A DNA stretch of 64,000 nt from Escherichia coli (GCF_041886205.1 NZ_CP169029.1); one strand, 5' to 3'. Positions 12,513-64,000 are shown, numbered from the stretch's first letter. Numbers and translations are program-made. Notes: a model not told the origin generated them from the sequence alone.

Positions 12513-13560
12513 GCGCCGGGATTTACCCCCTAACCTTTATATAAGAAACAATGGATATTACTGCTACAGGGACCCAAGGACGGGTAAAGAGTTTGGATTA
12601 GGCAGAGACAGGCGAATCGCAATCACTGAAGCCATACAGGCCAACATTGAGTTATTTTCAGGACACAAACACAAGCCTCTGACAGCGAGAATCAACAGTG
12701 ATAATTCCGTTACGTTACATTCATGGCTTGATCGCTACGAAAAAATCCTGGCCAGCAGAGGAATCAAGCAGAAGACACTCATAAATTACATGAGCAAAAT
12801 TAAAGCAATAAGGAGGGGGCTGCCTGATGCTCCACTTGAAGACATCACCACAAAAGAAATTGCGGCAATGCTCAATGGATACATAGACGAGGGCAAGGCG
12901 GCGTCAGCCAACTTAATCAGATCAACACTGAGCGATGCATTCCGAGAGGCAATAGCTGAAGGCCATATAACAACAAACCCTGTCGCTGCCACTCGCGCAG
13001 CAAAATCAGAGGTAAGGAGATCAAGACTTACGGCTGACGAATACCTGAAAATTTATCAAGCAGCAGAATCATCACCATGTTGGCTCAGACTTGCAATGGA
13101 ACTGGCTGTTGTTACCGGGCAACGAGTTGGTGATTTATGCGAAATGAAGTGGTCTGATATCGTAGATGGATATCTTTATGTCGAGCAAAGCAAAACAGGC
13201 GTAAAAATTGCCATCCCAACAACATTGCATGTTGATGCTCTCGGGATATCAATGAAGGAAACACTTGATAAATGCAAAGAGATTCTTGGCGGAGAAACCA
13301 TAATTGCATCTACTCGTCGTGAACCGCTTTCATCCGGCACAGTATCAAGGTATTTTATGCGCGCACGAAAAGCATCAGGTCTTTCCTTCGAAGGGGATCC
13401 GCCTACCTTTCACGAGTTGCGCAGTTTGTCTGCAAGACTCTATGAGAAGCAGATAAGCGATAAGTTTGCTCAACATCTTCTCGGGCATAAGTCGGACACC
13501 ATGGCATCACAGTATCGTGATGACAGAGGCAGGGAGTGGGACAAAATTGAAATCAAATAA
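12490..13560 (+). CDS. int: Lambda-type tyrosine integrase Int (356 aa), apparently intact
   Basis: MGRRRSHERRDLPPNLYIRNNGYYCYRDPRTGKEFGLGRDRRIAITEAIQANIELFSGHKHKPL… with C-terminal …HELRSLSARLYEKQISDKFAQHLLGHKSDTMASQYRDDRGREWDKIEIK. Confidence 0.95.
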   Translation: MGRRRSHERRDLPPNLYIRNNGYYCYRDPRTGKEFGLGRDRRIAITEAIQANIELFSGHKHKPLTARINSDNSVTLHSWLDRYEKILASRGIKQKTLINYMSKIKAIRRGLPDAPLEDITTKEIAAMLNGYIDEGKAASANLIRSTLSDAFREAIAEGHITTNPVAATRAAKSEVRRSRLTADEYLKIYQAAESSPCWLRLAMELAVVTGQRVGDLCEMKWSDIVDGYLYVEQSKTGVKIAIPTTLHVDALGISMKETLDKCKEILGGETIIASTRREPLSSGTVSRYFMRARKASGLSFEGDPPTFHELRSLSARLYEKQISDKFAQHLLGHKSDTMASQYRDDRGREWDKIEIK

Positions 13561-46442: not shown

Positions 46443-47582
46443 TTAGTACAGAGAGTGGGTGTTACGTTCAATATCTTCTTTGGTGATACGACCGAACATT
46501 TTCCAGTAACACCAGGCGGTGTAGAGCAGAATGATCGGTACCAGAACCACCGCAACCCAGGTCATGACGTTAAGCGTCAGCTGGCTGGAAGTTGCATCCC
46601 ACATTGTCAGACTTGCGTTCATCATGGTGCTGGACGGCATCACAAACGGGAACATTGCGATACCGGCTGTCAGGATGATGCAGGCCAGCGTCAGGGAGGA
46701 GAACACAAACGCCCACGCGGCTTTATCCATACGTGCAGTCAGGATGGTCAGCAGCGGCAGAACCACACCCAGTGCCGGAATAGCCCACAGAATTGGCGTG
46801 TTGTTGAAGTTAACCAGCCATGCGCCAGCTTCACGAACCACTTCTTTATTCAGTGGGTTAGAGGCTGCGTAATGGTCCATTGTCGATTTCACGACATAAC
46901 CATCGATACCGTACATCACCCATACGCCAGCCAGTGCGAAACAGACCAGTGTCACCAGCGCAGCCACCTGAGCCGTTGCACGGGTACGCAGGTGCAGTTC
47001 GCCCACGGTACGCATTTGCAGATAGGTTGCGCCCTGAGTAATGATCATCCCTACGCTCACCACGCCTGCCAGCAGGCCGAACGGGTTAAGCAACTGGAAG
47101 AAGTTACCGGTGTAGTACAGACGCAGATATTCATCAACGTTGAACGGTACGCCCTGCAACAGGTTACCGAACGCTACACCAATTACCAGCGGCGGAACGA
47201 AGCTACCAATGAAGATGCCCCAGTCCCACATGTTACGCCAGCGGGTTTCTTCAATCTTGGAGCGGTAGTCAAAACCGACCGGACGGAAGAACAAAGACGC
47301 CAGCACGAGGATCATCGCCACATAGAAGCCGGAGAACGCAGCGGCATAGACCATCGGCCAGGCAGCAAAGAGTGCGCCGCCCGCGGTGATCAGCCAAACC
47401 TGGTTACCGTCCCAGTGTGGTGCAATGGAGTTAATCATAATTCGACGCTCGGTGTCGTTACGACCGAGGAAACGGGTGAGCATGCCCACCCCCATGTCGA
47501 AACCGTCAGTGACTGCAAAACCAATCAGCAGAACGCCAACCAGCAGCCACCAGATAAAACGCAATACTTCATAATCGATCAT
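46443..47582 (-). CDS. cydB: Cytochrome bd-I ubiquinol oxidase subunit II
   Basis: 379 aa, MIDYEVLRFIWWLLVGVLLIGFAVTDGFDMGVG…. Confidence 0.95.
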   Translation of the reverse strand: MIDYEVLRFIWWLLVGVLLIGFAVTDGFDMGVGMLTRFLGRNDTERRIMINSIAPHWDGNQVWLITAGGALFAAWPMVYAAAFSGFYVAMILVLASLFFRPVGFDYRSKIEETRWRNMWDWGIFIGSFVPPLVIGVAFGNLLQGVPFNVDEYLRLYYTGNFFQLLNPFGLLAGVVSVGMIITQGATYLQMRTVGELHLRTRATAQVAALVTLVCFALAGVWVMYGIDGYVVKSTMDHYAASNPLNKEVVREAGAWLVNFNNTPILWAIPALGVVLPLLTILTARMDKAAWAFVFSSLTLACIILTAGIAMFPFVMPSSTMMNASLTMWDATSSQLTLNVMTWVAVVLVPIILLYTAWCYWKMFGRITKEDIERNTHSLY

Positions 47583-47597
47583 TTGACGACTCCTGTC

Positions 47598-49166
47598 TTA
47601 GCGTGCCGGCTGAGTAGTCGTGGAAGACTGCTCAAAGTGATAGCGACCGGTTTTCAGGCTGCTTGGGCCGAGGCGTGCAAACTTGAACATTAAGAACAAT
47701 TCTGCCACCAGGAACAGGGTATACAGGCCGCAAATCAGCACCATTGAGAAGATGAGATCGCCTGCGGTCAGTGACGAGTTCGCCACAGCTGTCGGCAGCA
47801 CTTCACCGATAGCCCACGGTTGGCGGCCATATTCAGCCACGAACCAGCCCGCTTCTACAGCAATCCACGGCAGCGGAATACCGTACAGCGCGGCGCGCAG
47901 AAGCCATTTTTTCTCGCCAATGCGGTTGCGGATGACACTCCAGAAAGAGAGCGCGATGATTGCCAGAAGCAGGAAGCCACACGCCACCATGATACGGAAC
48001 GCAAAGTACAGCGGCGCTACACGCGGGATGGAGTCTTTGGTTGCCTGTTGAATCTGCGCTTCAGTCGCATCAGCCACGTTTGGCGTATAGCGTTTCAGCA
48101 GCAGACCGTAACCGAGGTCTTTCTTCATGCTATTGAACTGGTCACGAACCGCCTGGTCGGTAGAACCAGAACGCAGTTGTTCGAGCAGAGAGTACGCCTT
48201 CATCCCGTTACGAATGCGTTCTTCATGCTGCACCATCAGCTCTTTCAGGCCGATAACCGGGGTATCCACGGAACGCGTTGCAATGATGCCCAGTGCGTAA
48301 GGGATCTGAATCGCAAATTTGTTCGTCTCCTCTTCCTGATCAGGAATGCCGAACAGAGTAAAGGCAGCAGGCGCAGGTTGCGTTTCCCACTCGGCTTCAA
48401 TAGCAGCCAGTTTGGTTTTCTGCACGTCGCCCATTTCGTAGCCGGATTCATCACCCAGAACAATAACAGACAGAACAGCAGCCATACCGAAGCTGGCAGC
48501 GATAGCAAAGGAGCGTTTAGCGAAGGCGAAGTCACGACCTTTCAGCATATACCATGCGCTGATACCGAGGATGAACATCGCGCCAGTCACATAACCAGAC
48601 GCTACAGTGTGAACGAATTTCACCTGAGCAACCGGGTTAAGCACCAGCTCGGAGAAGCTCACCATCTCCATACGCATAGTTTCAAAGTTGAAATCGGACG
48701 CGATTGGGTTTTGCATCCAGCCGTTCGCAACCAGAATCCACAGTGCGGACAGGTTTGAACCGAGCGCCACCAGCCAGGTGACACACATATGCTGAACTTT
48801 ACCCAGACGATCCCAACCGAAGAAGAACAGACCTACAAAGGTGGATTCGAGGAAGAAGGCCATCAGACCTTCGATTGCCAGCGGCGCACCGAAGATATCC
48901 CCTACATAGTGGGAATAGTAAGACCAGTTAGTCCCGAACTGGAACTCCATGGTCAGACCGGTAGCCACACCCAGAGCGAAGTTGATACCAAACAACTTGC
49001 CCCAGAACTTGGTCATATCTTTATAAATCTGTTTGCCGGAGAGGACGTAGACCGTTTCCATAATGGCCAGCAGGAACGCCATACCGAGCGTCAGTGGCAC
49101 AAAAAGGAAGTGGTACATCGCGGTCAAGGCAAACTGTAAGCGCGACAGTTCGACTATATCTAACAT
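47598..49166 (-). CDS. cydA: Cytochrome bd-I ubiquinol oxidase subunit I
   Basis: 522 aa, [41 protein letters not shown]…; the ORF track begins one codon upstream. Confidence 0.95.
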
Positions 49167-49503
49167 CATGACTCCTTGCTCATCGCATGAAGACTCCGAG
49201 AGTGAACCCCGTTAGAAAGGGTCACACGCATGCCCCAATACAAAATTATTTGCTCGCCTCTATCGTTGCCATTTCATCTAAAGAGGAAAAGACAATGATA
49301 AAAAAGTTACAAATATGTTAATGAATAAACCAAATTGATCCCGTAATTATATTACGCCGCAAAATCCTTACAATAAACAGGTTTTTATTGAGCAAATTTG
49401 CATTTTTCGACAGTGATCAATTTATAGCGAAATTGTCACGACCTCACCAATTTGATCTACGACAATTTATCGTGTTTTGCAGATTTATTTCAAGAATTAA
49501 AAA

Positions 49504-49517
49504 TTGATTTATATCAA
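49504..49517. promoter_or_regulatory. Candidate FNR/CRP-family site in the AT-rich cydAB control region
   Basis: TTGATTTATATCAA matches TTGAT-N4-ATCAA exactly; lies about 340 bp upstream of cydA. Confidence 0.45.
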
Positions 49518-49971
49518 AATCAACCAAATATGTTAATAATGTATAAACCATAGATCATTGGTAATTTTATTGTTAATTTATTGTGAAATATTTATGCAAC
49601 ACAATAATTACAATGAAAAAGTATAGATAAAAAACCAGTGTTTTATTTAACAGAACCGCCCTATCCACTTTTTATAATACCAATTGATTAGAGTAGCCAA
49701 TTTGTTGCTATTTCACATAACATATTTTTATCAAAGTTAATTGATTGTTGCCTTTATGAGCACCGACCGTATGCCCGTTATGTTATTGTTTCATTAGTAA
49801 TAATCACTTAAATGTATCGATGAAACAGGTATGACTTAGCGGGAGTGATTGTTTCTGAGTGAACAGAGACCACTTTCGCCTGATAAATGAAAAATGAGCG
49901 ATTTTTGCAAGTTAGTTTTTCTATAGCCGAGTACGCTCAGCGCCTCGCTTGATTACAATGAGGTTGCTGCT

Positions 49972-50916
49972 ATGAGTCCTGATAATATCAGTTCTGCTGT
50001 CAATCGCTTCTCAGGTTGGCCATCTAATGATCCTCTAAAAACAGATAAAGAATCAATGACATCACCCGTGACTGTGCAGGTAATAAAGATGATTGCCGCC
50101 ATCCTTGACCCACATCGGATAGTCGTTGGAATTGATACACTTTATACAACGCAGCGCGAAACATTTACCTCAGAGAGTCAACAGCTCATTGAATCAGCAT
50201 TGCAAACACTTCATGTGATGAATTTAAATAACCTGGAAACAAATCGCGATGAAGAAGGTCACTATCTGGCTTTTGAATATAACCTTGACACCTCTGACAG
50301 AATAACCGTTTCTGCTTATAATGAAAAAAATCTTGGCTGCTATGGCCAATGTCTTTTAATACAGGATGACGAAACAGACTTATTCAACCTGATAAAAATT
50401 AAAATTTTTGAAGCCAGGCATAATTATGTCGCTCAATTGATGAGCGATCCGGAATTTATGTTCAAATTCAGTTATAGCGCTCAACAAAATAGATTAGAAC
50501 CTCATCTTCTGGTTCCCGCTTATTTTCCTCTAAAAACAAACGAACCGGTTACGCAAGAGGATGTACTGTTACTTTATCGTTTCTTTAAAATGAATGATGA
50601 TTTTAATAAATTAACATCAGATGAATACATGAGTATCATGACACCTCTGATGAAGTGTGAGCGTAGCGTCCACGACCACAACAGGTATGTGACGGGCAAA
50701 GATACCCTTCTCCTGGACTATCCTCCTTCTGGTAACCAGATACATTTCCATGTTTTCCCTGACGAATCAGCAACACTAGTCCTTTATTTTTCAAACAATG
50801 ACCTTGAATGTTTCGTCTTTGAAAAAGATATTCCGAGCCAGTATCGCTTTTTCAAAATGTTTACCAATCTGGCACTGGTTATAGATCAGTTAACCGAAGC
50901 CAATAAAATACTTTAA
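49972..50916 (+). CDS. Hypothetical protein, 314 aa, no recognisable domain; AT-rich
   Basis: Long ORF with plausible RBS (GAGG) before ATG. Strongly AT-biased codon usage unlike flanking core genes, no signal peptide or TM segment visible. Confidence 0.55.
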   Translation: MSPDNISSAVNRFSGWPSNDPLKTDKESMTSPVTVQVIKMIAAILDPHRIVVGIDTLYTTQRETFTSESQQLIESALQTLHVMNLNNLETNRDEEGHYLAFEYNLDTSDRITVSAYNEKNLGCYGQCLLIQDDETDLFNLIKIKIFEARHNYVAQLMSDPEFMFKFSYSAQQNRLEPHLLVPAYFPLKTNEPVTQEDVLLLYRFFKMNDDFNKLTSDEYMSIMTPLMKCERSVHDHNRYVTGKDTLLLDYPPSGNQIHFHVFPDESATLVLYFSNNDLECFVFEKDIPSQYRFFKMFTNLALVIDQLTEANKIL

Positions 50917-50997
50917 TTTTCTATATATCCTCTGTGACAAATATTGCTTAACAATGCCCGGGGATTAATTTTTATTACTCACGGTAAGATTTAAATA

Positions 50998-51480
50998 ATG
51001 ATACCATCTCAGATCTCTTTCAATACTCTTCCTGTCAATGCAACATACGCTTCAGAGACAACAGTTGACACACAAAAATTCTCTGAAATCCTCTACTCAG
51101 CGGGGTGTTCCCTAAAGGATCTGGCTTATCTGAACAGATGTCTGGCATCATTACACCCAACTATCGCCAAAAACATTTATGAAACAGAAAATCTCAGCGA
51201 TCAAAAATTACTGCATATTGATTGCCGTAGTACAAATGAAATCAAGATAAATATCTTTTTTGGTCAGCAACGAGAAGGATTAATTGAAATTAGTTCTGAC
51301 ACAGTTATTTTTTCGATACTGTCTTCATTGATTGACTCCGCCATTTCTAAATTTCAACACCAAATCCCGTTAACGGTTCAGTTAATCCTGAACTATTGTA
51401 TGAGGATTATACTGATTAAATCCACCCTGTCGCGAAAAATGGCCTACGTTATTGCCAGACGTAATAAAACCTTTGATTAA
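50998..51480 (+). CDS. Hypothetical protein, 160 aa, no recognisable domain; AT-rich
   Basis: Co-directional with the preceding ORF, 81-bp spacer, similar AT-rich composition. Confidence 0.5.
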   Translation: MIPSQISFNTLPVNATYASETTVDTQKFSEILYSAGCSLKDLAYLNRCLASLHPTIAKNIYETENLSDQKLLHIDCRSTNEIKINIFFGQQREGLIEISSDTVIFSILSSLIDSAISKFQHQIPLTVQLILNYCMRIILIKSTLSRKMAYVIARRNKTFD

Positions 51481-51966
51481 CGTTACTCATACTGGTAGCA
51501 CCTTCATGTACCTCTCTTTTTTACGAAAAATCAAAAGAGCTAACGAAGGTCATAATTCGCATGAATCATTAATCATTTGTTATTTTCAACATTATTTTTA
51601 TATTAAGCAGAAATGAATTGCAGTGAAATTCGACTTAAATTTTATGAAATGCATTTACTCATGGCTAAACCCATATCACCAAAATGCAAATTAGAAGTAG
51701 ATCACAATTATCTCAATACATCAAATCAAGTTAATTTTAAAAATTTAACATTCATGACATTAGTTGACATAACATACTGAATTAACATGGAAATTTAAAA
51801 CCACACGTTAAACAATCATTTCCCGAAAGACATTTTGAAAATAGATCAATTGCAACATTACGGTCAGATAAAGACACTCCTGTGATATTAAACCTACGCC
51901 GTTATGAACGGCCATAAATACGACGTGTGTAACTTATTTTACTCTCTGTCTTACAAAGGATTACCC

Positions 51967-52416
51967 ATGAAGAAAACAACACTTGTGATTGGCGTTATTG
52001 GCGCGGACTGCCATGCAGTAGGCAATAAAGTTCTGGACCGCGTTTTTAGCAACCACGACTTCAGAGTCATTAATCTGGGCGTAATGGTCAGCCAGGACGA
52101 ATATATTGATGCTGCCATTGAAACTGGCGCTGACGCGATTGTCGTCTCCTCTATCTATGGGCATGGCGATATCGACTGTCTGGGCATGCGCGAACGCTGC
52201 ATCGAGCGTGGACTGGGGGACATCCTCCTCTATGTGGGCGGTAACCTGGTGGTCGGAAAACATGACTTCGCTGACGTGGAAACCAAGTTCAAAGAGATGG
52301 GATTTGATCGCGTCTTTGCCCCAAGTCATGACTTAGAAGATGTTTGTCAGCTGATGGCCCACGATATCAACCAACGTCATGACGTTGATACTCGCATTCT
52401 TGAAGAGGCAATCTGA
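51967..52416 (+). CDS. Glutamate mutase sigma (S) subunit, B12-binding domain (methylaspartate mutase small subunit)
   Basis: [27 protein letters not shown]… carries the cobalamin-binding DxHxxG-type motif (…DCHAVGNK…); about 149 aa. The ORF track begins upstream at 51904. Confidence 0.85.
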
Positions 52417-53804
52417 TGCAAATCGTCTCTGTCGATATTGGATCGACGTGGACCAAAGCAGCCCTCTTCACCCGGGAGGGGGACGCGTTAACGTTGGTTA
52501 ACCACGTACTGACCCCAACCACCACCCATCATCTGGCGAAGGGGTTTTTCTCCAGCCTGAACCAGGTGTTAAACGTAGATAATGCCCTCCCCCTGTTAAA
52601 CAGCGGTGAGGTTGCATTGAAGTATTCCTCCTCTGCCAAAGGTGGGCTGGCGGTTGCCGCAATGGGATTAGTGCCTTCTATCACCCTGGAAACCGCGAAA
52701 GTAACTGCTCACTCAGCGGGTGCTAAAATTGCGCAATATTATGCCTACAAGCTGAACCGCCGTGATATCCAGGCACTGGAAGAAACGCAGCCCGATATTC
52801 TCTTGTTCACCGGCGGCACCGACGGCGGAGAAGAAAGCTACGGACTGAATAACGCCCGTGTGCTGGCAGAATCCAAACTCGACTGCGCCATTATTTATGC
52901 CGGAAACCGGGATATTCAGGACGAGGTGCAGGAGATCCTCGGGCATAAAGACCTGACCATCGTCGACAACGTTCTGCCCGATCTTGACCATCCGAACCCT
53001 TTAGCTGCACGCCAGGCTATCTGCGACATATTCCTTAAACGCATCGTTAAAGGGAAAGGGCTGGATGTCATTGTTGATAAAACAGGCGAAGAACCAATGC
53101 CGACACCATGGACGGTCTTTGAACTGGTTAAGGCAATCAGTAACGTCGATCACAGCTGGAAAGAGTTCATGCTGATCGACATGGGCGGCGCAACCACCGA
53201 TGTTTATTCCGCCTGTGCCAACACGCTCTCGCCCGACACCGTTTTACACGGCGTACCGGAACCCTTCGTAAAACGGACGGTGGAAGGCGATCTGGGAATG
53301 CGCGTCTCGGCAGTGGTGGTTGGTGAAAGTGCGAAAGAGTTAGTCAATGTGAATTTTGCTCAGCAACCCGCACAGCTGGACGCTTTTTATCATTATCTCC
53401 GTCATTTAGTCGCTCATCCCGACTACTTACCCGCAAATGCAGAAGAGAAATATTTCGATACCGTCCTGGCCGGACTGTGTGTGGGTTATGCCACCGAAAG
53501 ACATGCGGGCACCAAAAAAGAGGTCTGCACCTGCGTCGGCAATGTCGATTTACAGATGGGACGCGACCTGACAACCGTGCGTAAAGTCGTGGGATCCGGC
53601 GGATGGCTCTCGCGTGCCAGTCAGTTCGATATGCATCACTGGTTGAAATACCGCGAGTTAAACGACGACGGTAAACGCATTCTCTTACCGACCGAATTTG
53701 AATATTACCGCGATTCCCGGGGGCTATTACCACTGCTGGCAAACGTCGCCAGAGTCGATCCTCTGGCCGCCGCGCGCACCAGTATTCAATGCTTAACCCT
53801 ATAA
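52416..53804 (+). CDS. Glutamate mutase accessory protein (GlmL/MutL-like, actin-fold ATPase)
   Basis: 462 aa, [18 protein letters not shown]…; placed between the S and E subunit genes as in clostridial operons. Confidence 0.75.
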   Translation: MQIVSVDIGSTWTKAALFTREGDALTLVNHVLTPTTTHHLAKGFFSSLNQVLNVDNALPLLNSGEVALKYSSSAKGGLAVAAMGLVPSITLETAKVTAHSAGAKIAQYYAYKLNRRDIQALEETQPDILLFTGGTDGGEESYGLNNARVLAESKLDCAIIYAGNRDIQDEVQEILGHKDLTIVDNVLPDLDHPNPLAARQAICDIFLKRIVKGKGLDVIVDKTGEEPMPTPWTVFELVKAISNVDHSWKEFMLIDMGGATTDVYSACANTLSPDTVLHGVPEPFVKRTVEGDLGMRVSAVVVGESAKELVNVNFAQQPAQLDAFYHYLRHLVAHPDYLPANAEEKYFDTVLAGLCVGYATERHAGTKKEVCTCVGNVDLQMGRDLTTVRKVVGSGGWLSRASQFDMHHWLKYRELNDDGKRILLPTEFEYYRDSRGLLPLLANVARVDPLAAARTSIQCLTL

Positions 53805-53822
53805 CAATTAAGGCTGCAATCA

Positions 53823-55268
53823 ATGGAACTTCGAAATAAGAAATTAACCCATGACGAATTCATGACCGAGCGGCAACAGGTACTGAAAACCTGGGAAACC
53901 GGCAAGGATGTTGAAAACTTTGAAGATGGCGTTAAATACCAACAAACCATCCCTGAGCATAAACGCTTCTCTCTTGCGCTGCTGAAAGCAGACAAGGAAG
54001 GTAAAACCCTTAGCCAACCGCGCGCAGGTGTGGCGCTGATGGACGAACACATCGAACTACTGAAAACACTACAAGAAGAGTGCGATCTGCTGCCAAGCAC
54101 CATCGATGCATATACCCGTCTGAATCGGTACGAAGAAGCGGCTGTAGGGATTAAAAAATCCATCGAAGCCGGAACCTCTAAACTGAACGGTTTACCGGTA
54201 GTTAACCACGGCGTCGCAGCTTGCCGTCGCCTCACCGAAACCCTGCAAAAACCGCTACAGATCCGCCACGGCACGCCAGATGCGCGTCTGCTGGCTGAAA
54301 TCTCGATGTCCAGCGGCTTTACCAGTTACGAAGGCGGCGGCATTTCCTACAACATTCCGTATGCCAAACGCGTAACGCTGGAAAAATCGATCCGCGACTG
54401 GCAGTACTGCGACCGTTTAATGGGGATGTACGAAGAACACGGGATCCGCATCAACCGCGAACCATTTGGCCCACTAACGGGTACGCTGATCCCGCCGTTT
54501 ATCTCGCACTCTATCGCCATAATCGAAGGATTGCTGGCACTGGAACAGGGTGTGAAATCTATCACCGTTGGTTATGGCCAGGTCGGCAGCCTGACGCAGG
54601 ATGTTGCGGCGATCCAGTCTCTGCGTGAACTTGCACACGAATATTTTCAGAGCTATGGCTATACCGACTATGAATTGAGTACCGTGTTTCACCAGTGGAT
54701 GGGCGGCTTTCCGGAAGACGAATCGAAAGCGTTCGCTATTATCTCCTGGGGCGCAGCCGTCGCGGGGATGTCTGGTGCCACCAAAGTCATCACCAAAAGT
54801 CCGCACGAAGCCTGGGGCATCCCGACTGCCGCTGCCAACATTCAAGGGCTAAAAGCCTCCCGCCAGATGCTCAACATGGTCAATGAGCAGAAATTCCCGC
54901 CGTGCCCTGCGGTTGAACTGGAAATTGAACTGATTAAGAGCGAGGTTCGCGCGGTACTGAATAAAGTGTTTGAACTGGGTAATGGTGATATTGCGCGCGG
55001 TACGGTGCTGGCATTTGAAGCGGGCGTACTGGATGTGCCGTTTGCGCCAGCCGCCTGCAACGCGGGCAAAATTCTTCCGGTCCGTGACAACACCGGCGCG
55101 ATACGCGTACTGGAAGCCGGAGCCGTTCCATTGCCAAAAGATATTCTCGACCTCCACCACGATTACGTTGCGGAACGCGCACGCTTTGAAGGACGCCAAC
55201 CGACATTCCAGATGGTTGTAGATGACATCAATGCTGTATCCCACAGTAAATTAATAGGAAGACCATAA
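53823..55268 (+). CDS. Glutamate mutase epsilon (E) subunit (methylaspartate mutase large subunit)
   Basis: 481 aa; TIM-barrel mutase E-subunit-like sequence immediately after S and L. Confidence 0.85.
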   Translation: MELRNKKLTHDEFMTERQQVLKTWETGKDVENFEDGVKYQQTIPEHKRFSLALLKADKEGKTLSQPRAGVALMDEHIELLKTLQEECDLLPSTIDAYTRLNRYEEAAVGIKKSIEAGTSKLNGLPVVNHGVAACRRLTETLQKPLQIRHGTPDARLLAEISMSSGFTSYEGGGISYNIPYAKRVTLEKSIRDWQYCDRLMGMYEEHGIRINREPFGPLTGTLIPPFISHSIAIIEGLLALEQGVKSITVGYGQVGSLTQDVAAIQSLRELAHEYFQSYGYTDYELSTVFHQWMGGFPEDESKAFAIISWGAAVAGMSGATKVITKSPHEAWGIPTAAANIQGLKASRQMLNMVNEQKFPPCPAVELEIELIKSEVRAVLNKVFELGNGDIARGTVLAFEAGVLDVPFAPAACNAGKILPVRDNTGAIRVLEAGAVPLPKDILDLHHDYVAERARFEGRQPTFQMVVDDINAVSHSKLIGRP

Positions 55269-56509
55269 TGAAAATAAAACAGGCTCTGTTCACCGCTGGC
55301 TACTCCTCATTCTATTTCGATGACCAGCAGGCGATAAAAAACGGAGCGGGTCATGACGGCTTTTTTTATACCGGGGAGCCGGTAACACAGGGGTTTAACG
55401 CCGTTCGTCAGGCCGGGGAGTGCGTATCGGTACAGTTGATTCTGGAAAACGGCGCGGTCGCCGTAGGTGACTGTGCTACCGTACAGTATTCCGGGGCAGG
55501 TGGTCGCGATCCACTGTTCCTCGCAGAGCACTTTATTCCGTTCCTCAACGATCATATCAAGCCATTACTGGTAGGCCGCGATGTGGATGCTTTCCTGCCG
55601 AATGCCCGTTTCTTCGACAAATTGCGTATTGACGGCAACTTGCTGCATACCGCCGTGCGCTACGGATTATCACAGGCGCTGCTTGATGCTACCGCGCTGG
55701 CAACCGGCCGTCTGAAAACTGAAGTGGTCTGTGATGAATGGCAGTTGCCACGCGTGGCGGAATCCATTCCATTATTTGGTCAGAGCGGCGACGATCGATA
55801 TATCGCCGTCGATAAGATGATCCTTAAAGGCATCGACGTGCTGCCCCATGCGCTGATTAATAACGTCGAGGAGAAGCTGGGCTTTAAAGGTGAAAAACTG
55901 CGCGAATATGTCCGCTGGCTGTCGGATCGCATTCTGAGCAAGCGCACCAGCGCACGCTACCACCCTACCCTGCACATCGATGTATACGGCACTATCGGTC
56001 TGATCTTCGATATGGATCCGCTTCGCTGTGCGCAATACATCGCCAGCCTGGAAACAGAAGCGCAAGGCCTGCCGCTCTACATTGAAGGGCCGGTCGATGC
56101 CGGTAACAAGCCCGATCAAATTCGCCTGCTGACCGCGATTACCAAAGAGCTGACGCGCCTCGGTTCTGGCGTGAAAATTGTGGCCGATGAATGGTGTAAC
56201 ACTTACCAGGATATTGTTGATTTCACCGATGCCGCCAGTTGCCACATGGTGCAAATCAAAACCCCGGATCTGGGCAGTATTCACAACATCGTCGATGCGG
56301 TTCTTTACTGCAACAGCCACAGCATGGAAGCATACCAGGGCGGCACCTGCAATGAAACTGATGTCAGTGCCCGCACCTGTGTCCACGTCGCCCTAGCCGC
56401 TCGCCCTATGCGTATGCTGGTAAAACCAGGGATGGGCTTTGACGAAGGCCTCGATATCGTCTTCAACGAAATGAATCGTACTATCGCGCTGTTGCAGGCT
56501 AAGGATTAA
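55268..56509 (+). CDS. mal: 3-methylaspartate ammonia-lyase (enolase superfamily)
   Basis: 413 aa, MKIKQALFTAGYSSFYFDDQQAIKNGAGHDGFFYTGEPVT…; start overlaps the mutase E stop (TAATG). Confidence 0.85.
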   Translation: MKIKQALFTAGYSSFYFDDQQAIKNGAGHDGFFYTGEPVTQGFNAVRQAGECVSVQLILENGAVAVGDCATVQYSGAGGRDPLFLAEHFIPFLNDHIKPLLVGRDVDAFLPNARFFDKLRIDGNLLHTAVRYGLSQALLDATALATGRLKTEVVCDEWQLPRVAESIPLFGQSGDDRYIAVDKMILKGIDVLPHALINNVEEKLGFKGEKLREYVRWLSDRILSKRTSARYHPTLHIDVYGTIGLIFDMDPLRCAQYIASLETEAQGLPLYIEGPVDAGNKPDQIRLLTAITKELTRLGSGVKIVADEWCNTYQDIVDFTDAASCHMVQIKTPDLGSIHNIVDAVLYCNSHSMEAYQGGTCNETDVSARTCVHVALAARPMRMLVKPGMGFDEGLDIVFNEMNRTIALLQAKD

Positions 56510-56512
56510 CAA

Positions 56513-57883
56513 ATGGCTCGTTCTTTTAAAGTCTTATCGCCAACGGCAATCCTCGGGTATGGATTCCCGGAAGAGAGCTTCCGCAAAGCGATGGCAGAAT
56601 CGCCTGATCTGATCGCCGTTGATGCAGGCTCTTCCGATCCTGGCCCCCACTACCTCGGAGCGGGCAAACCGTTTACCGATCGCGCAGGGGTCAAGCGCGA
56701 TCTGCGCTATATGATCACCGCAGGCGTGCAAAATAATATACCGGTGGTGATCGGAACGGCCGGCGGTTCTGGTGCCGCACCACACCTGGAGTGGTGCCGA
56801 GAAATAATTCATGAGATTGCCCGGGAAGAGCTCCTCTCGTTCTCGATGGCACTGATCCCGGCAGACGTTGACAAAGCCATCGTCCACCAGGCGCTGGATA
56901 ACGGCAAAATCACGGCGCTGGATTTTGTCCCGCCGTTAACCCACGACGCGATTGACGAAAGTACGTATATCGTCGCGCAAATGGGCATCGAACCCTTCCA
57001 GCGGGCGCTGAAAGAAGGCGCGCAAGTGGTGCTGGGCGGGCGCGCTTACGACCCGGCCTGCTTTGCTGCGCTCCCGATCATGCAAGGCTTTGATGAAGGT
57101 CTGGCGCTGCATTGTGGGAAAATCCTTGAATGCGCGGCAATCGCCGCAACGCCCGGCTCAGGCTCTGACTGTGCGATGGGCATCATTGATGACAACGGCT
57201 TTACGCTGAAGACATTTAATCCGAAGCGTAAATTTACCGAAACGTCAGCAGCTGCACACACACTGTATGAGAAATCCGATCCCTACTTCCTGCCAGGACC
57301 TGGCGGCGTGTTGAACCTGAAAGGCTGCACATTTAAAGCAGTCAATGACGGCGAAGTGTACGTCAGCGGTTCCAAGCATGAAGAAACGCCGTATGCCCTG
57401 AAACTGGAAGGTGCGCGACGGGTGGGCTTCCGCTGTCTGACCATCGCCGGAACGCGCGACCCGATCATGATCGCCGGGATCGATAAAATCATCGATGAAG
57501 TCAAAACCAGCGTTTCGCGTAACCTGTCGCTAGACGATGACAGCATTCGCATCAATTTCCACCTGTACGGCAAAAACGGGGTGATGGGCGACCATGAACC
57601 GATGCAAACTGCCGGGCATGAGCTGGGGATTGTCCTTGATGTAGTTGCACCGACCCAGGAAATTGCCAATAGTGTTTGCTCGCTGGTGCGCTCTACCATG
57701 CTGCACTACGGCTATGAAAACCGCATCGCTACCGCAGGCAACCTGGCGTTCCCGTTCTCTCCTTCTGATATCCAGGGCGGGCCGGTATACGAATTTTCCA
57801 TATATCACCTGATTGAAGCCAACGACGCTCTGCGTTTTGATTTCCATATTGAACAGGTGACGCCAGAAGGAGTTCAGGCATGA
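56513..57883 (+). CDS. Uncharacterised protein, 456 aa, resembling the AtuA-like (DUF1446) family
   Basis: Family assignment by remembered similarity only; in-operon position right after mal with a 3-bp gap. Confidence 0.6.
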   Translation: MARSFKVLSPTAILGYGFPEESFRKAMAESPDLIAVDAGSSDPGPHYLGAGKPFTDRAGVKRDLRYMITAGVQNNIPVVIGTAGGSGAAPHLEWCREIIHEIAREELLSFSMALIPADVDKAIVHQALDNGKITALDFVPPLTHDAIDESTYIVAQMGIEPFQRALKEGAQVVLGGRAYDPACFAALPIMQGFDEGLALHCGKILECAAIAATPGSGSDCAMGIIDDNGFTLKTFNPKRKFTETSAAAHTLYEKSDPYFLPGPGGVLNLKGCTFKAVNDGEVYVSGSKHEETPYALKLEGARRVGFRCLTIAGTRDPIMIAGIDKIIDEVKTSVSRNLSLDDDSIRINFHLYGKNGVMGDHEPMQTAGHELGIVLDVVAPTQEIANSVCSLVRSTMLHYGYENRIATAGNLAFPFSPSDIQGGPVYEFSIYHLIEANDALRFDFHIEQVTPEGVQA

Positions 57884-58197
57884 AACAGTCAATTGTCTCA
57901 CTGGCGCAAGTCATTCGTTCGAAAAATGCCGGACCTTACGAACTGGTTTTAGATATTTTATTTAAAACTAAAGAAAACTATGAGCGAGTTAAATCATCAG
58001 GGCAATTAACCCCAGAACTGATTGCGCGCTTATATCATGTTGAACCTGACTTTATTCATCGTATTGTCTGGTTTGATCCTTCTAACGCAGTAAAAATCGT
58101 CATGCCACGAGATATTATCTCCGGGAATGTAGGTGACAATGATGTCTATGGTGCACAGCAACATGCACCTTTATTAAATATGAGTTTCGATTTGTAA
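57880..58197 (+). CDS. Uncharacterised small protein, 105 aa (DUF4387-like), translationally coupled to the preceding gene
   Basis: ATG overlaps the upstream stop (ATGA); this small partner commonly accompanies the AtuA-like family. Confidence 0.6.
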   Translation: MKQSIVSLAQVIRSKNAGPYELVLDILFKTKENYERVKSSGQLTPELIARLYHVEPDFIHRIVWFDPSNAVKIVMPRDIISGNVGDNDVYGAQQHAPLLNMSFDL

Positions 58198-58280
58198 AAA
58201 TCCGAACACTTTTAGCCAACTGACATCCCGTCACTTATTGCAGTTCAACACTTCAGCTATTTGTAAGGTTGTAATAGCAG

Positions 58281-58330
58281 GTAGATGCCTGAATCTCTAT
58301 TCAGGCATCTACTTCTCCTGATTCTGATTT
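58281..58330 (+). terminator. Rho-independent terminator after the mutase/lyase genes
   Basis: Perfect 14-bp stem GTAGATGCCTGAAT-CTCT-ATTCAGGCATCTAC followed by TTCTCCTGATTCTGATTT. Confidence 0.75.
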
Positions 58331-58336
58331 ATCGCC

Positions 58337-59638
58337 GTGCACCTGATGGAGGAAAAAATGAAGAAAATAAGTTTAACCACGATGATTCTTTTGGCGCTGG
58401 TACTTGGAATGATTATCGGCGTAGTGCTCAATAACACTGCTTCACCGGAAACAGCAAAACTCTATGCGCAAGAAATATCGATATTCACGACGATTTTCTT
58501 ACGACTGATAAAAATGATTATCGCTCCGCTAGTGGTTTCTACCCTGGTGGTAGGTATTGCTAAAATGGGCGATGCCAAAGCCCTTGGCCGTATTTTTTCT
58601 AAAACACTCTTTTTATTTATTTGCGCCTCATTGCTATCAATTGCCTTAGGCTTGATAACGGTAAATTTCTTCATGCCAGGTACAGGAATTAATTTTGTTG
58701 CACACGGTGCCGAAACCACTGGAGTGGTCGCGTCAGAACCCTTCACGCTAAAAGTATTTATTTCGCATGCTTTCCCCACCAGCATTGTCGATGCCATGGC
58801 GCACAATGAAATTTTGCAAATCGTGGTGTTCTCAATTTTCCTCGGCTGTAGCCTGACGGCGATTGGCGAGAAAGGCAGCGCCATCGTTCACGCCTTAGAT
58901 TCGCTGGCACATGCCATGTTAAAGCTCACTGGCTACGTCATGCTCTTCGCTCCCCTGACCGTATTCGCCGCTATTTCAGCATTGATTGCTGAACGAGGAC
59001 TGGCAGTTATGGTGAGCGCCGGGATCTTTATGGGTGAATTTTATTTCACCATGTTATTACTTTGGGTGCTGCTTATCGGTCTGGCCATCGTTTATGTCGG
59101 CCCCTGCATCAGACGCCTGACCCGCGCCCTTTCGGAACCCGCCCTGCTGGCATTTACCACATCCAGTTCTGAAGCGGCTTTTCCGGGAACGCTTGAAAAA
59201 CTGGAGCAATTTGGCGTTTCCCCCAAAATTGCCAGCTTTGTCTTACCCATTGGCTACTCATTTAATCTCGTTGGATCAATGGCCTACTGCTCCTTCGCCA
59301 CCGTTTTCATCGCCCAGGCCTGCAATATCCATTTATCCATCGGTGAGCAAATCACCATGCTGTTGATCCTGATGTTGACCTCGAAAGGAATGGCTGGCGT
59401 ACCACGCGCCTCAATGGTGGTTATCGCCGCCACGCTCAACCAGTTCAATATTCCGGAAGCGGGGCTGATCTTGCTGATGGGCGTTGATCCGTTCCTTGAT
59501 ATGGGGCGTTCCGCGACAAACGTCATGAGCAACGCAATGGGCGCTGCGATGGTGAGTCGGTGGGAAGGCGAACATTTCGGCGAGGGCTGTCGGGGTAAAG
59601 CATTAAAATCCAATGAATCGAACGTTGCTCTGCCCTGA
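58337..59638 (+). CDS. Dicarboxylate/amino acid:cation symporter (DAACS, GltP/DctA-like)
   Basis: 433-aa polytopic membrane protein with DAACS-like motifs (…LTSKGMAGVPRASMVVIAATL…). True start may be the downstream MKKISL (58358). Confidence 0.8.
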   Translation: MHLMEEKMKKISLTTMILLALVLGMIIGVVLNNTASPETAKLYAQEISIFTTIFLRLIKMIIAPLVVSTLVVGIAKMGDAKALGRIFSKTLFLFICASLLSIALGLITVNFFMPGTGINFVAHGAETTGVVASEPFTLKVFISHAFPTSIVDAMAHNEILQIVVFSIFLGCSLTAIGEKGSAIVHALDSLAHAMLKLTGYVMLFAPLTVFAAISALIAERGLAVMVSAGIFMGEFYFTMLLLWVLLIGLAIVYVGPCIRRLTRALSEPALLAFTTSSSEAAFPGTLEKLEQFGVSPKIASFVLPIGYSFNLVGSMAYCSFATVFIAQACNIHLSIGEQITMLLILMLTSKGMAGVPRASMVVIAATLNQFNIPEAGLILLMGVDPFLDMGRSATNVMSNAMGAAMVSRWEGEHFGEGCRGKALKSNESNVALP

Positions 59639-59745
59639 GGGGGATCTTAAGCAATCAGAAGCCAATGACTACGTATTTTTATAAGCCGGATCATGAAGTT
59701 AGACGGCAATTAAGTAACACTAACGTTTAAGGTGAAAAGTGAAAT

Positions 59746-61398
59746 ATGTCCAAACCTTTTATCTGGCAAGAACCGTTTCTACAAAATAAAGACGGTACAG
59801 AATATACATTAATTAGCGATCAACATATTACAGTAACGGAATTAGACGGCGAAGAAGTGATAAAAATCGCTCCTGAAGCATTAACGCTGCTTGCCCGGCA
59901 GGCATTTTATGAAGCCTCTTTTTTCTTACGTTCCGCTCATTTGCAACAGGTCGCCAGCATTCTTAACGATCCGCAGGCCAGTAGTAATGATAAATACGTT
60001 GCGTTGCAGTTATTACGTAATGCTGAAGTCTCAGCAAAAGGGGTATTACCCAACTGTCAGGATACCGGCACCGCAACTATTGTTGCCAGTAAAGGGCAAC
60101 AGATATGGACCGGAGGTAACGACGCCGAAGCCTTAAGCAAAGGCATTTACACCACTTTTCAGGAAAATAATCTGCGCTTTTCACAAAATGCGCCGCTGGA
60201 TATGTATACCGAAGTCAATACGCAAACCAATCTCCCGGCGCAGATTGATATCAGCGCTGTCGCTGGTAATGAGTACCATTTTCTCTGTGTTAATAAAGGG
60301 GGCGGCTCTGCCAATAAAGCCGCGCTTTATCAGGAAACCAAATCCTTATTGCAACCAGAAAAACTGACCGCATTTTTAATCGAAAAAATGAAATCGCTGG
60401 GCACCGCTGCCTGCCCGTCTTATCACATCGCCTTTGTCGTCGGAGGGCTTTCAGCCGATCAAACCTTAAAAGTTGCCAAGCTGGCTTCTACGAAATATTT
60501 CGACAATTTGCCCACCAGCGGAAACGAGCAGGGACAAGCATTCCGTGATATTGAGCTGGAAAAAGCGTTGCTCGAGGCCAGTCAGCAATTTGGTATTGGT
60601 GCGCAATTTGGGGGTAAATATTTCGCTCATGATATTCGCGTCATTCGTCTGCCGCGTCACGGTGGCTCTTGCCCGATAGCTATGGCGCTCTCCTGTTCAG
60701 CCGATCGCAATATCAAAGCAAAAATTAACAAACACGGTATCTGGCTGGAAAAACTCGAACACAATCCGGGGCAATATATTCCAGCCTCACTGCGGGAAGA
60801 AAATCACGCGCAACATGTACAACTGGATCTAAACCGTCCGTTGCGTGACGTGATGCAGGATCTCGCCAGATTACCGGTAGGCACCCGCGTGTCGTTAAGT
60901 GGTCCCATCGTAGTGGCGCGCGATATCGCCCACGCCAAAATAAAAGCGCGGCTGGATAGCGGCGAACCGATGCCGGATTACCTGAAGCATCATATTGTCT
61001 ATTACGCTGGCCCGGCGAAAACACCGGAGAACATGGCCTGCGGTTCACTGGGTCCAACCACGGGCGGTCGAATGGACGGTTATGTCGATACCTTCCAGGC
61101 GGCTGGCGGCAGTCTGGTGATGTTATCGAAAGGTAACCGCAGCCAGCAGGTCACCGATGCCTGTCACAAACATGGCGGCTTCAATCTGGGAAGTATTGGC
61201 GGTGCAGCTGCGTTACTGGCGCAAGAATATGTCAAAAGTCTGCGTTGCCTGGAATACCCGGAGCTGGGTATGGAAGCGGTGTGGATGATGGAAGTGGAAA
61301 ATCTGCCCGCATTCATCCTGGTAGATGATAAAGGCAATAATTTCTTTAGTCAGTTTGAGCAGCAACACCGCTGCGCCAGTTGCCCTGCGGGACATTAA
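59746..61398 (+). CDS. Class I (Fe-S) fumarate hydratase paralogue, candidate mesaconase
   Basis: 550 aa, collinear with FumA/FumB (…[11 protein letters not shown]…, …[11 protein letters not shown]…, …[16 protein letters not shown]…) but clearly diverged. Confidence 0.85.
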
Positions 61399-61407
61399 GG
61401 AAAATGA

Positions 61408-62010
61408 ATGGAAGCGCGAATTTCAACTGAACGGCATGTGCAGCGCCAACAGAAATTGAAGGAACAGGTCGATACGCGCGTCGCGGCGGCGATAGAGAAA
61501 AAAGGGATCTTGATTGTTTTCACCGGCAACGGCAAAGGGAAATCCACTGCCGCGTTTGGTACTGTGACGCGCGCGGTGGGTCATGGCAAAACGGTGGGGG
61601 TTGCGCAGTACATCAAGGGGCAATGGGACAACGGCGAATACAACCTTCTCCAGCCGCTGGGGGTTGAGTTTCATATTATGGGAACCGGTTTTACCTGGGA
61701 GACACAGAACCGGCAAGCGGATATCGACGCGGCGAAAGAGGTCTGGTCGGAAAGCAAACGGATGCTGGCTGACAAGCGTTACGACTTAGTGGTGCTTGAT
61801 GAGCTGACCTATATGCTGGCTTACCATTATCTGGATACCGAAGAAGTGATCGCTTCTCTGCAAAACCGCCCGGCACAACAAAGTGTCATTGTCACCGGAC
61901 GCGGTTGCCACAGTCAGATATTAAAAATGGCGGATACGGTAAGCGAAATCCGTCCCGTCAAACATGCTTTTGATAACGGCATTCAGGCCCAGCCGGGTAT
62001 CGACTGGTAA
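61408..62010 (+). CDS. Cob(I)yrinic acid a,c-diamide / corrinoid adenosyltransferase paralogue (BtuR/CobO family)
   Basis: 200 aa, …ILIVFTGNGKGKSTAAFG… P-loop, collinear with BtuR. Confidence 0.85.
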   Translation: MEARISTERHVQRQQKLKEQVDTRVAAAIEKKGILIVFTGNGKGKSTAAFGTVTRAVGHGKTVGVAQYIKGQWDNGEYNLLQPLGVEFHIMGTGFTWETQNRQADIDAAKEVWSESKRMLADKRYDLVVLDELTYMLAYHYLDTEEVIASLQNRPAQQSVIVTGRGCHSQILKMADTVSEIRPVKHAFDNGIQAQPGIDW

Positions 62011-62013
62011 TAA

Positions 62014-62046
62014 CTGCGCCTGGCATCCCGCCAGGCGCAGGTTTTA
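62014..62046. terminator. Hairpin between convergent genes (likely bidirectional terminator)
   Basis: CTGCGCCTGGC-ATCCC-GCCAGGCGCAG followed by GTTTTAC. Confidence 0.6.
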
Positions 62047-62949
62047 CATCTCCTGCGGTACGACCGATTTCACCAGCAACCATTCACGAAATTGCTGCAA
62101 GTGCGGTGAGTCAGACTTCTCTTCCTGCCACGTCATAATAAAACGATTACCGGTACGAATAGGCACATCACAGGGGATCACCATATCGCCACTATCCAAA
62201 TCATGTTGAATAGCGAACCGTGGTAACAGCGCCACGCCGAGATTAGAGCGCACGGCGGCAATCAGCATTGAAAGCAAATCGAAACGTGGTCCGTTGTTGA
62301 CCAGCGGACTGCTAACGCCAGATAAAGCAAACCACTCTTCCCAGCCAGTAATACGGGTGCTTTGATGCAGAAGTGGTAACTCAGTAAGCAGTTCTGCCAC
62401 TGACAGTTTTTGATCGGACATTGCAAGCAAACTGCCACTGCATACCGGCAAAATCTCCTCTTCAAAGAGATATTCTACTTCCGCCCAGGGCGCGCAAAAA
62501 TTTTCGCGCATAATGACAGCATCGTACTCCCGATTAAGAAAATCGCCGTTATTAGCTAAAGAATGAATATTAACAATAATATCGGGATGTAACTTTGTGA
62601 ATTCATGTAAATTTGGGATTAACCAGTGGGTACTAAAAGTAGGATTAACGGCAAGTTCAATAACCTGAACCGTAGGCTGCCAGGTCATAATGGTATTGGT
62701 ATCGCGTTCCAGCTTATTTAATGTTTCTTTTACTATCCCCAGGTAATACTTCCCTGCATCATTAAGAAAAATGCGTTTTTTAGAGTGTGAAAATAATGGA
62801 GTATGTAAAAATTCCTCCAGCGCACTTACTTGTCTGAATACAGCACTTTGGGTTAACGCTAACTCCTCTGCCGCTCTGGTATAACTTTCATGACGTGCGA
62901 CGACCTCAAAAGTCACCAGCAGTTCCGTTTTAGGTATTTTCCCTCGCAT
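62044..62949 (-). CDS. LysR-family transcriptional regulator
   Basis: 301 aa, N-terminal HTH (…VTFEVVARHESYTRAAEELALTQSAVFRQVSALEE…). Confidence 0.85.
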   Translation of the reverse strand: MRGKIPKTELLVTFEVVARHESYTRAAEELALTQSAVFRQVSALEEFLHTPLFSHSKKRIFLNDAGKYYLGIVKETLNKLERDTNTIMTWQPTVQVIELAVNPTFSTHWLIPNLHEFTKLHPDIIVNIHSLANNGDFLNREYDAVIMRENFCAPWAEVEYLFEEEILPVCSGSLLAMSDQKLSVAELLTELPLLHQSTRITGWEEWFALSGVSSPLVNNGPRFDLLSMLIAAVRSNLGVALLPRFAIQHDLDSGDMVIPCDVPIRTGNRFIMTWQEEKSDSPHLQQFREWLLVKSVVPQEM

Positions 62950-63159
62950 AATGCCTTCCGTGAAAAAAATAACAATTCAAAAATTATTTTATAAAAAACA
63001 GTAGCACTAATGAATATCATAATTCAAATAAACAAACCAGTCAGCTATATGTCCAACCAGAAAAATAAAGTGACAATAATCCTAAAACAGTAATTTCACC
63101 TCAGTTATCCACATGCAATACTTTAAAAATATTATTGCAAGAATATTATTCATATACAT

Positions 63160-63295
63160 GAATATACTCTAAATAAGTCGAGTTGCAGGAAGGGAACAAA
63201 TAATGAATCTCCAGAAGATTACATAAGTAAGTGACCTGGGTGAGCGAACATCGATGCAGCACATGCAACTTGAATTATGACAAGTATACAATGAT
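63160..63295. repeat. ERIC/IRU element (second copy in window)
   Basis: …GAGTTGCAGGAAGGGAAC…ACATAAGTAAGTGACCTGGGTGAGCGAAC…GCAGCACATGCAACTTGAA…, about 85% identical to the copy at 17430-17560. Confidence 0.8.
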
Positions 63296-63539
63296 AAATT
63301 TAGATACCCTATGTTATATATTATCTATGTCCGGTTAAATTGAATGAGTCATGGCCTTAAAAGACTTCGCAAAAGATTATTTCTCTTTAACAATAAGCCA
63401 GATTTACCACTTGTAAAAATTGCTATCGCCACATACACTACGCGCGTTTTCTTTCCCTTTTGCTGGCTGCTGACCGGAAAGACAAAATTACCCTCGCAAT
63501 ACAGGGGGGTGTTTAACGTCTATATTTCAGGATAGCGTT

Positions 63540-64000
63540 ATGCATCATCTTTCAAGGTTTGATAAAGCCTTTCTGCGCAAAGGGATCCAACTTTCCCGCG
63601 CCAACAATATTGTTTCATTATCTCGTCCATCAGGTGCCAGTGCCCGCGTACTGTTGCCGGACGAACTGCCACTGGAAGAAAAAGCAGTGACACAACTGCT
63701 TGATTTTGCAGAAGTGAAGCTACCAGACCATCCAGGTTATGTACGCCAGACGTGCGCGACGCCAGATTTTCACCCCGGCAATGGCGTCCCCGTTGGCGCG
63801 GTGGTGGCCTCAACGCCGGATTTAGTCATTCCCGCCGCCATCGGCACCGATATTTCTTGCGGCATGCGGCTGCTAACGACTGGATTAACACTTGAACAAG
63901 CCGAAGCGCATAAAGACGTCATCACTCAGCGGTTAACGCAAGTGCTACTGCAAAATGAGCGCGATGTTCCGTTATCCGCACAGGCGTTCACCGCGCTTTT
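63540..64000 (+). CDS. RtcB-family RNA ligase paralogue, N-terminal part (gene runs past window end)
   Basis: Own translation MHHLSRFDKAFLRKGIQLSRANN…TPDFHPGNGVPVGAVVASTPDLVIPAAIGTDISCGMRLL… contains the RtcB metal-site motifs (PDxH…G, IGxDIxCGM). Confidence 0.7.
   Translation, partial: MHHLSRFDKAFLRKGIQLSRANNIVSLSRPSGASARVLLPDELPLEEKAVTQLLDFAEVKLPDHPGYVRQTCATPDFHPGNGVPVGAVVASTPDLVIPAAIGTDISCGMRLLTTGLTLEQAEAHKDVITQRLTQVLLQNERDVPLSAQAFTAL

Follow-up and report, generated by a model that had tools for sequence, protein, structure and literature searches.

A methylaspartate pathway cluster with a predicted CmlAB citramalate lyase in a variable island beside cydA of Escherichia coli

Does the Escherichia coli chromosome at this locus encode the whole of the methylaspartate (mesaconate) pathway of glutamate catabolism, including the enzyme that would dispose of citramalate? 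We addressed this question for positions 51967-62949 of a 64,000-nucleotide stretch of E. coli DNA (NZ_CP169029.1), referred to here as the window. A preliminary description had recognized a B12-dependent cluster of eight genes in this region, namely glmS, glmL, glmE, mal, a symporter gene, a fumarase gene, cobO and a LysR regulator gene, and had stated that no citramalate lyase was visible. Gene calls together with profile and structure matches identified a complete and intact cluster with exact ends, 51967 being the glmS ATG and 62949 the start of the LysR gene on the minus strand. All eight named genes were present and intact, with strands and coordinates correctly assigned. The cluster genes contained no internal stops, and their lengths equalled those of the O157:H7 Sakai orthologues throughout. 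The region is very probably the enterobacterial methylaspartate cluster, which would lead from glutamate through methylaspartate, mesaconate and (S)-citramalate to pyruvate and acetate. Every pathway enzyme was identified here by homology, and on that basis the window encodes the full pathway, with CmlAB citramalate lyase as its predicted last enzyme.

The statement that no citramalate lyase was visible was overturned by two open reading frames (ORFs) that had been passed over, both on the plus strand directly behind mal. The first, cmlA (56513-57883), encodes a predicted large citramalate lyase subunit of 456 amino acids (PF07287, AtuA/DUF1446), and the second, cmlB (57880-58197), a predicted small subunit of 105 amino acids (PF14330, DUF4387). 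The cmlA start lies 3 bp past the mal stop, and cmlA and cmlB overlap by 4 bp. CmlA matched the PDB entries 9ERQ_A/9EVF, 'Citramalate lyase, subunit A (cmlA)', over residues 1-456 of 456 (E = 1.6e-292), with 421 of 456 residues identical to 9ERQ chain A (92%). CmlB matched PDB 9ERQ_B, 'Citramalate lyase, subunit B (cmlB)', over its full length (E = 5.2e-57), with 88 of 104 residues identical to chain B (85%). NCBIfam held no model for either protein, and RefSeq names cmlA an 'acyclic terpene utilization AtuA family protein' and cmlB simply 'DUF4387'. AtuA of Pseudomonas lies in a terpene/geranyl-CoA cluster. It has the PF07287 family in common with CmlA but lacks the glm or mal context, and because of this difference in context the RefSeq label 'AtuA family' is misleading for cmlA.

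The closest functional precedent is the two-subunit Cml (cmlAB) of Raoultella planticola, which Ivan Berg's laboratory had given to the authors of a 2026 preprint; there FumA and Cml together allowed an E. coli strain auxotrophic for acetyl-CoA to grow on mesaconate (bioRxiv 10.64898/2026.01.16.699985). According to the PDB titles and the same preprint, this orthologue splits citramalate into pyruvate and acetate (bioRxiv 10.64898/2026.01.16.699985). From the preprint we infer that the 9ERQ/9EVF chains are the Raoultella proteins, a point that the search output leaves unstated. The E. coli pair has the same architecture (456 and 105 amino acids, PF07287 and PF14330) at the identities given above. 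Cleavage was shown for the Raoultella enzyme and is predicted for the E. coli pair.

Gene order gave a second line of evidence. Candidatus Rifleibacterium and an unrelated ENA contig both keep the order regulator-glmS-mutL-glmE-mal-AtuA-DUF4387, with homologues at 62-66% identity; in both loci a fumarase gene is near and CitDEF genes are absent within 10 kb. Since the order mal-AtuA-DUF4387 is conserved across phyla, it lends independent support to the lyase call. In both of these loci DUF4387 is directly followed by a conserved ORF of 313-317 amino acids that has no Pfam match (L006 11712-12665 in Rifleibacterium, L007 11677-12618 in the ENA contig), and this ORF is without a counterpart in the E. 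coli cluster.

The genes that would produce citramalate were equally well recognized. All NCBIfam matches were judged against curated equivalog or subfamily cut-offs, and the claim of a B12-dependent methylaspartate pathway held at this standard, with matches above cut-off for GlmS, GlmL, GlmE and MAL. The glmS gene (51967-52416, plus strand) encodes the 149-residue B12-binding subunit S of glutamate (methylaspartate) mutase (NF002612, 252.7 bits, cut-off 110; TIGR01501, 245.7 bits). It matched Clostridium cochlearium GlmS (1I9C) with E = 1.4e-49, and its cobalamin motif DxHxxG is kept and aligns with D14/H16/G19 of that structure. On the same strand, glmL (mutL; 52416-53804) encodes the mutase accessory or reactivating protein of 462 amino acids (TIGR01319, 896.6 bits; NF040745, 510.5 bits, cut-off 475), and glmE (53823-55268) the catalytic subunit E of 481 amino acids (TIGR01503, 863.4 bits, cut-off 390). 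GlmE aligned over its full length with 6H9E_B and 1CCW_B (E = 5.5e-190) and keeps the substrate-binding stretches QPRAG, AYTR, RHGTPD and EGGGISYN. The adjoining mal gene (55268-56509, plus strand), whose start codon overlaps the glmE stop, encodes 3-methylaspartate ammonia-lyase (MAL) of 413 amino acids (TIGR01502, 542 bits, cut-off 286). It aligned over its full length with PDB 1KKO (E = 8.4e-269), and its catalytic stretches QIKTPDLG, HIDVYG, YIEGP and VADEWC are intact. Protein searches and a check for inactivating mutations thus upheld both the mutase and the ammonia-lyase calls. From glmS through cmlB the genes are packed tightly and either overlap or lie no more than 18 bp apart; the spacing then widens to 160 bp between cmlB and the symporter gene and to 107 bp between the symporter gene and fumD.

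The fumarase gene, fumD (59746-61398, plus strand), encodes a class I (Fe-S) fumarase paralogue of 550 amino acids that would act as mesaconase. It scored 1279 bits with NF011921 (cut-off 1060), and its scores with the FumA and FumB models, 921 and 919 bits, fell under both cut-offs, which marks it as a distinct paralogue. The 4Fe-4S cysteine motifs CQDTG, AACP and SCSADR are kept relative to Leishmania FH (5L2R). Purified ECs0757, the FumD of O157:H7 that was characterised as a mesaconase, preferred mesaconate (kcat/Km 2e6) to fumarate (7.5e5) (PMC4682846), and the window protein is identical to it at 541 of 550 positions (98.4%). The earlier suggestion that this diverged class I fumarase fits mesaconate hydration was therefore borne out by the profile scores and by the match to the characterised enzyme. 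Nine base pairs downstream, cobO (61408-62010, plus strand) encodes an ATP:cob(I)alamin adenosyltransferase of 200 amino acids. As had been proposed, the cluster carries its own corrinoid adenosyltransferase, which scored 295.6 bits (cut-off 185) with NF004637, the model for cob(I)yrinic acid a,c-diamide adenosyltransferase, and 246.6 bits with TIGR00708. E. coli lacks de novo corrin synthesis, and for this reason the cluster would depend on imported corrinoid, a dependence with which the presence of its own adenosyltransferase is consistent. Between cmlB and fumD lies the gene of a dicarboxylate/amino acid:cation symporter (DAACS family) of 426 amino acids (58358-59638, plus strand), which is labelled GltP in Fig 5 of Kronen and Berg (PMC4682846). 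The symporter is presumed to import glutamate or a C4/C5-dicarboxylate.

Taken together, these genes would define the following route. The symporter would import glutamate, and the adenosylcobalamin (AdoCbl)-dependent GlmS/GlmE mutase would convert it to (2S,3S)-3-methylaspartate. GlmL would maintain the mutase, and CobO would adenosylate scavenged corrinoid and so supply the cofactor. MAL would then release ammonia from methylaspartate to give mesaconate, FumD would hydrate mesaconate to (S)-citramalate, and CmlAB would cleave citramalate to pyruvate and acetate. On this reading the route would also operate in E. coli itself.

Several observations weigh against this route. O157:H7 ATCC 700728 showed no anaerobic growth on glutamate and no methylaspartase or citramalate lyase activity under the conditions tested (PMC4682846). 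The lyase assignment is a prediction that draws on PDB deposit names, on the use of the enzyme in one preprint and on synteny; a literature search found that 2026 preprint using the enzyme and did not find the primary CmlAB paper. A cmlAB homologue in Accumulibacter (68% identity to CmlA; L005 10001-11679) has no glm, mal or fumarase gene nearby, which means that close cmlAB homologues are not always tied to the methylaspartate pathway. The symporter scored 313 bits with the DctA model and 304 bits with the GltP model, both below the curated cut-offs, and its substrate is accordingly uncertain. Finally, no cobalamin riboswitch or other Rfam family was found over 47000-64000 at E values up to 1, so B12-responsive regulation is not evident. 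The Accumulibacter pair is placed between a glycoside hydrolase 77 gene and rpoC.

The cluster itself is not new: it was published in 2015 as the 'FumD cluster' of E. coli O157:H7 (Kronen and Berg, PLoS One 2015; PMC4682846), and the lyase structures are already in the PDB. As neighbours in the O157:H7 cluster the 2015 study listed, besides GltP, CobA and a LysR regulator, a DUF1446 gene that it left unexplained; it reported that 26.5% of E. coli strains had the cluster and called the fate of citramalate unclear (PMC4682846). The GltP-like transporter, the adenosyltransferase and the LysR regulator are all present in the window, matching the cluster in Fig 5 of that paper. The corresponding segment of O157:H7 Sakai/EDL933, ECs0755-ECs0767, agrees with the window in gene content, order and orientation, down to two orphan ORFs beside cydA, and window and Sakai DNA are 98.2% identical over 19,969 bp. 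Between ECs0755-ECs0764 and the window, protein identity is 98-100%: 148/149 residues for GlmS (ECs0764), 461/462 for GlmL (ECs0763), 479/481 for GlmE (ECs0762), 410/413 for MAL (ECs0761), 454/456 for CmlA (ECs0760), 105/105 for CmlB (ECs0759), 424/426 for the symporter (ECs0758), 200/200 for CobO (ECs0756) and 298/301 for the LysR regulator (ECs0755), with FumD as given above. Over the whole of ECs0755-0767 the shared genes show 96-100% amino acid identity, except ECs0766, which is frameshifted in the window lineage so that the 3' end of the second orphan ORF is altered. The two lineages also differ on the far side of the cluster, where Sakai is without mngRAB and has rtcB reduced to remnants, whereas the window lineage retains both rtcB and mngRAB. 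For the ten cluster genes we calculated dS 0.043, dN 0.0028 and dN/dS 0.066 between window and Sakai by the Nei-Gojobori method, which indicates that they are under purifying selection and not decaying.

These values bear directly on another possibility, a silent relic that is decaying in E. coli and no longer serves any function there. A relic would fit the lack of expression or activity in any laboratory condition tried (PMC4682846), the absence of the cluster from about 80% of genomes and the frameshift in the neighbouring orphan ORF. It would also fit base composition, since the leader upstream of glmS and both island arms are AT-rich (34-37% G+C, compared with 50-56% in the cluster), which would be typical of silenced horizontally acquired DNA. 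All ten cluster genes, however, are full length with intact catalytic motifs, and a dN/dS this low, measured at that dS between two distant lineages, points to continued purifying selection. We therefore regard a relic as improbable.

A second alternative is that the pathway stops at (S)-citramalate and that the DUF1446/DUF4387 pair does something else, for example in an AtuA-like role unrelated to citramalate. This could account for the lack of citramalate lyase activity in O157:H7 extracts (PMC4682846) and would agree with the family-level RefSeq names and the want of an NCBIfam model described above; in addition, no CitDEF-type lyase is annotated in the corresponding segment of a genome near-identical to the window. 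The 2015 negative assays, however, used cells that were not expressing the cluster, as there was no MAL activity either. The pair is 92% and 85% identical over full length to the PDB citramalate lyase subunits A and B, the orthologous Raoultella enzyme was put to use in vivo as a citramalate lyase, and cmlAB would be translationally coupled behind mal in a synteny kept across phyla. On these grounds an end of the pathway at citramalate is very unlikely. The further proposal that the symporter, FumD and CmlAB serve mainly exogenous C5-dicarboxylates (mesaconate, citramalate, methylaspartate) and not glutamate fermentation, with the B12 branch as an optional feeder, is hardly credible: although the symporter is equally like DctA and GltP, the gaps flanking its gene would permit separate promoters, and FumA with Cml alone was enough for growth on mesaconate in engineered E. 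coli, fumD is co-localised with glm and mal in all reported enterobacterial cases (PMC4682846), cmlAB is coupled to mal and not to fumD, and the adenosyltransferase gene, so close behind fumD, would be co-transcribed with it.

The methylaspartate cluster of the window also differs from the better-known versions of the pathway. The clusters of C. tetanomorphum, C. tetani and C. cochlearium have the same glutamate to pyruvate and acetate chemistry, with homologous GlmS, GlmL, GlmE and MAL. Clostridia make their own corrinoid. In the clostridial pathway the mesaconase is the heterodimer MesAB, the citramalate lyase is ACP-dependent and of the CitDEF type, and the regulator is of the GntR type (PMC4682846); their counterparts in the cluster described here are FumD, which is a single chain, CmlAB and a LysR regulator, and the cluster has a dedicated adenosyltransferase. 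A clostridial-type cluster was considered and rejected, as neither CitDEF nor MesAB was found among the ORFs of 49-64 kb or, for the whole window, in the annotation of the near-identical genome, and the fumarase is one chain of 550 amino acids. In the haloarchaeal methylaspartate cycle, which serves acetate assimilation, mesaconate is activated to mesaconyl-CoA and there is no hydration by a mesaconase (PMC4682846); the window cluster differs in encoding no CoA-transferase.

The regulator gene (62044-62949, minus strand) encodes a LysR-family (GcvA-like) protein of 301 amino acids that scored 220 bits with NF008352, below the cut-off of that model. It had been called divergent, but it is convergent with the operon, lying tail-to-tail with cobO and divergent only from rtcB. 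It stands at the 3' end of the cluster and presumably controls cluster expression. Between the cobO and LysR stop codons lies a G+C-rich hairpin (62014-62040) with a stem of 11 pairs, 9 of them G-C, which was the top terminator-like site in our scan and by its match to the consensus is likely a bidirectional terminator. Sigma-70-like sites numbered 21, compared with 24.9 in shuffled controls, and for this reason we claim no promoter.

To the left of glmS, the AT-rich left arm of the island (49543-51966, plus strand), delimited by the end of K-12 homology and the G+C profile, holds the two orphan ORFs and a leader of ~490 bp. Orphan ORF 1 (49972-50916, plus strand; Sakai ECs0767) encodes 314 amino acids and has a dN/dS of 0.48, far above the cluster genes. 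Orphan ORF 2 (50998-51480, plus strand; Sakai ECs0766) encodes 160 amino acids; compared with Sakai its 3' end carries a frameshift, and RefSeq lists the ORF as a pseudogene. Both were considered as parts of the pathway or of a defence system, and neither could be assigned, as no Pfam, NCBIfam or PADLOC match was found for either. In the right arm, the 5' part of an RtcB-family gene (63540-64000, plus strand; annotation of NZ_AP045833.1) is cut by the window end. In the complete genome it encodes 465 amino acids and runs to about 64937 in window coordinates (locus L001 20541-21938), standing alone with mngB next to it. Its NCBIfam RtcB scores are below the cut-offs, with only the C-terminal half aligning well, and PADLOC reported nothing for it.

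The cluster had been placed in a variable interval next to cydA, and this placement is correct: it lies within a variable island of ~15.5 kb between cydA and mngB. The near-identical genome referred to above is that of E. coli wlxctx60 (NZ_AP045833.1), which matches the window from end to end at 99.97% identity, the sole difference being an insertion sequence (IS) element of 1.3 kb. The order in that genome is cydA, the 314-residue orphan, the frameshifted orphan, the cluster, the LysR gene, the RtcB-family gene, mngB, mngA and mngR, so that the mng operon is kept and starts ~1.1 kb past the window end. We aligned the locus against K-12 and other E. coli genomes. Homology to K-12 on the cydA side ends at window position 49542 and restarts exactly at the mngB stop codon, and these two points are the boundaries of the island. 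In place of the ~15.5 kb of the window lineage, K-12 carries an unrelated mngB-cydA spacer of 473 bp, for which a sensitive blastn search of the island gave no match. There was no sign of a target duplication or a simple insertion scar, and the island is not marked by an integrase, a tRNA or a flanking repeat.

The preliminary description had proposed that the cluster replaced the mannosyl-glycerate (mng) genes. This does not hold for the window lineage, in which rtcB-mngB-mngA-mngR are retained, but it does hold for the O157 Sakai-type arrangement. Among 5426 complete E. coli genomes, 1116 carried at least 80% of window 49000-64000; the cluster is known as an accessory trait that about 20% of E. 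coli possess. The Sakai-type junction between sucD and LysR, with mngRAB absent, was the commonest cluster arrangement (836 genomes). The window-type rtcB-mngB junction occurred in 132 genomes, including 10 of the 10 genomes that are at least 99% identical to the window, while others had a sucD-rtcB-LysR arrangement, and some had neither cluster nor mng and carried a TPR protein gene instead. The sucD-cydA interval therefore exists in at least five states: mngRAB only (K-12), mngRAB with rtcB and the cluster (window), rtcB with the cluster, the cluster only (O157 Sakai) and the TPR-protein gene only. This five-state variability is a minor descriptive addition to what was known. In Sakai, fragments of 44 bp and 57 bp from the 3' end of rtcB remain beside sucD. 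These remnants suggest that the O157-type arrangement derives from one containing rtcB, and that the window-type or rtcB-containing state is older. The 3' 620 bp of mngB in the window lineage are ~85% identical to the common allele, while the whole operon is 95.6% identical to K-12, which suggests a recombination boundary in mngB.

The IS element that separates the window from NZ_AP045833.1 is a 1.3 kb IS3-family insertion at 7898-9208 with 25-nt terminal inverted repeats TGAACCGCCCCGGGAATCCTGGAGA, which we take to be IS629/IS1203-like. Its transposase orfB is apparently split into ORFs of 129 and 163 amino acids. It lies inside a degraded lambdoid prophage that occupies about window 1-13000 (L008 36345-49951) and adjoins ybhC. 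By the annotation of the near-identical genome, the prophage retains integrase, excisionase, a partial O, ren, rusA, quuD, lysis genes and partial tail genes, and its cargo comprises emrE, a gene for an ompC-like porin and trkG.

What does the assignment of CmlAB mean for E. coli? The labels 'AtuA family' and 'DUF4387' in RefSeq, and the older Sakai labels 'methylaspartate ammonia-lyase' and 'acyl-CoA synthetase', mask the predicted citramalate lyase genes, and CmlAB would close a pathway that was declared open-ended in 2015. On paper, island-bearing E. coli would then be equipped to turn glutamate into pyruvate, acetate and ammonia by a route that is complete and redox-neutral and that needs scavenged B12. 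We tentatively suggest that the cluster may be a conditional, cross-feeding trait, by which about one fifth of E. coli lineages would draw on gut glutamate for pyruvate, acetate and ammonia only where other microbes provide corrinoids, under the control of a LysR effector and a relief-of-silencing signal. If so, cross-feeding would explain why attempts to detect activity in the laboratory have failed despite strong purifying selection on the genes.

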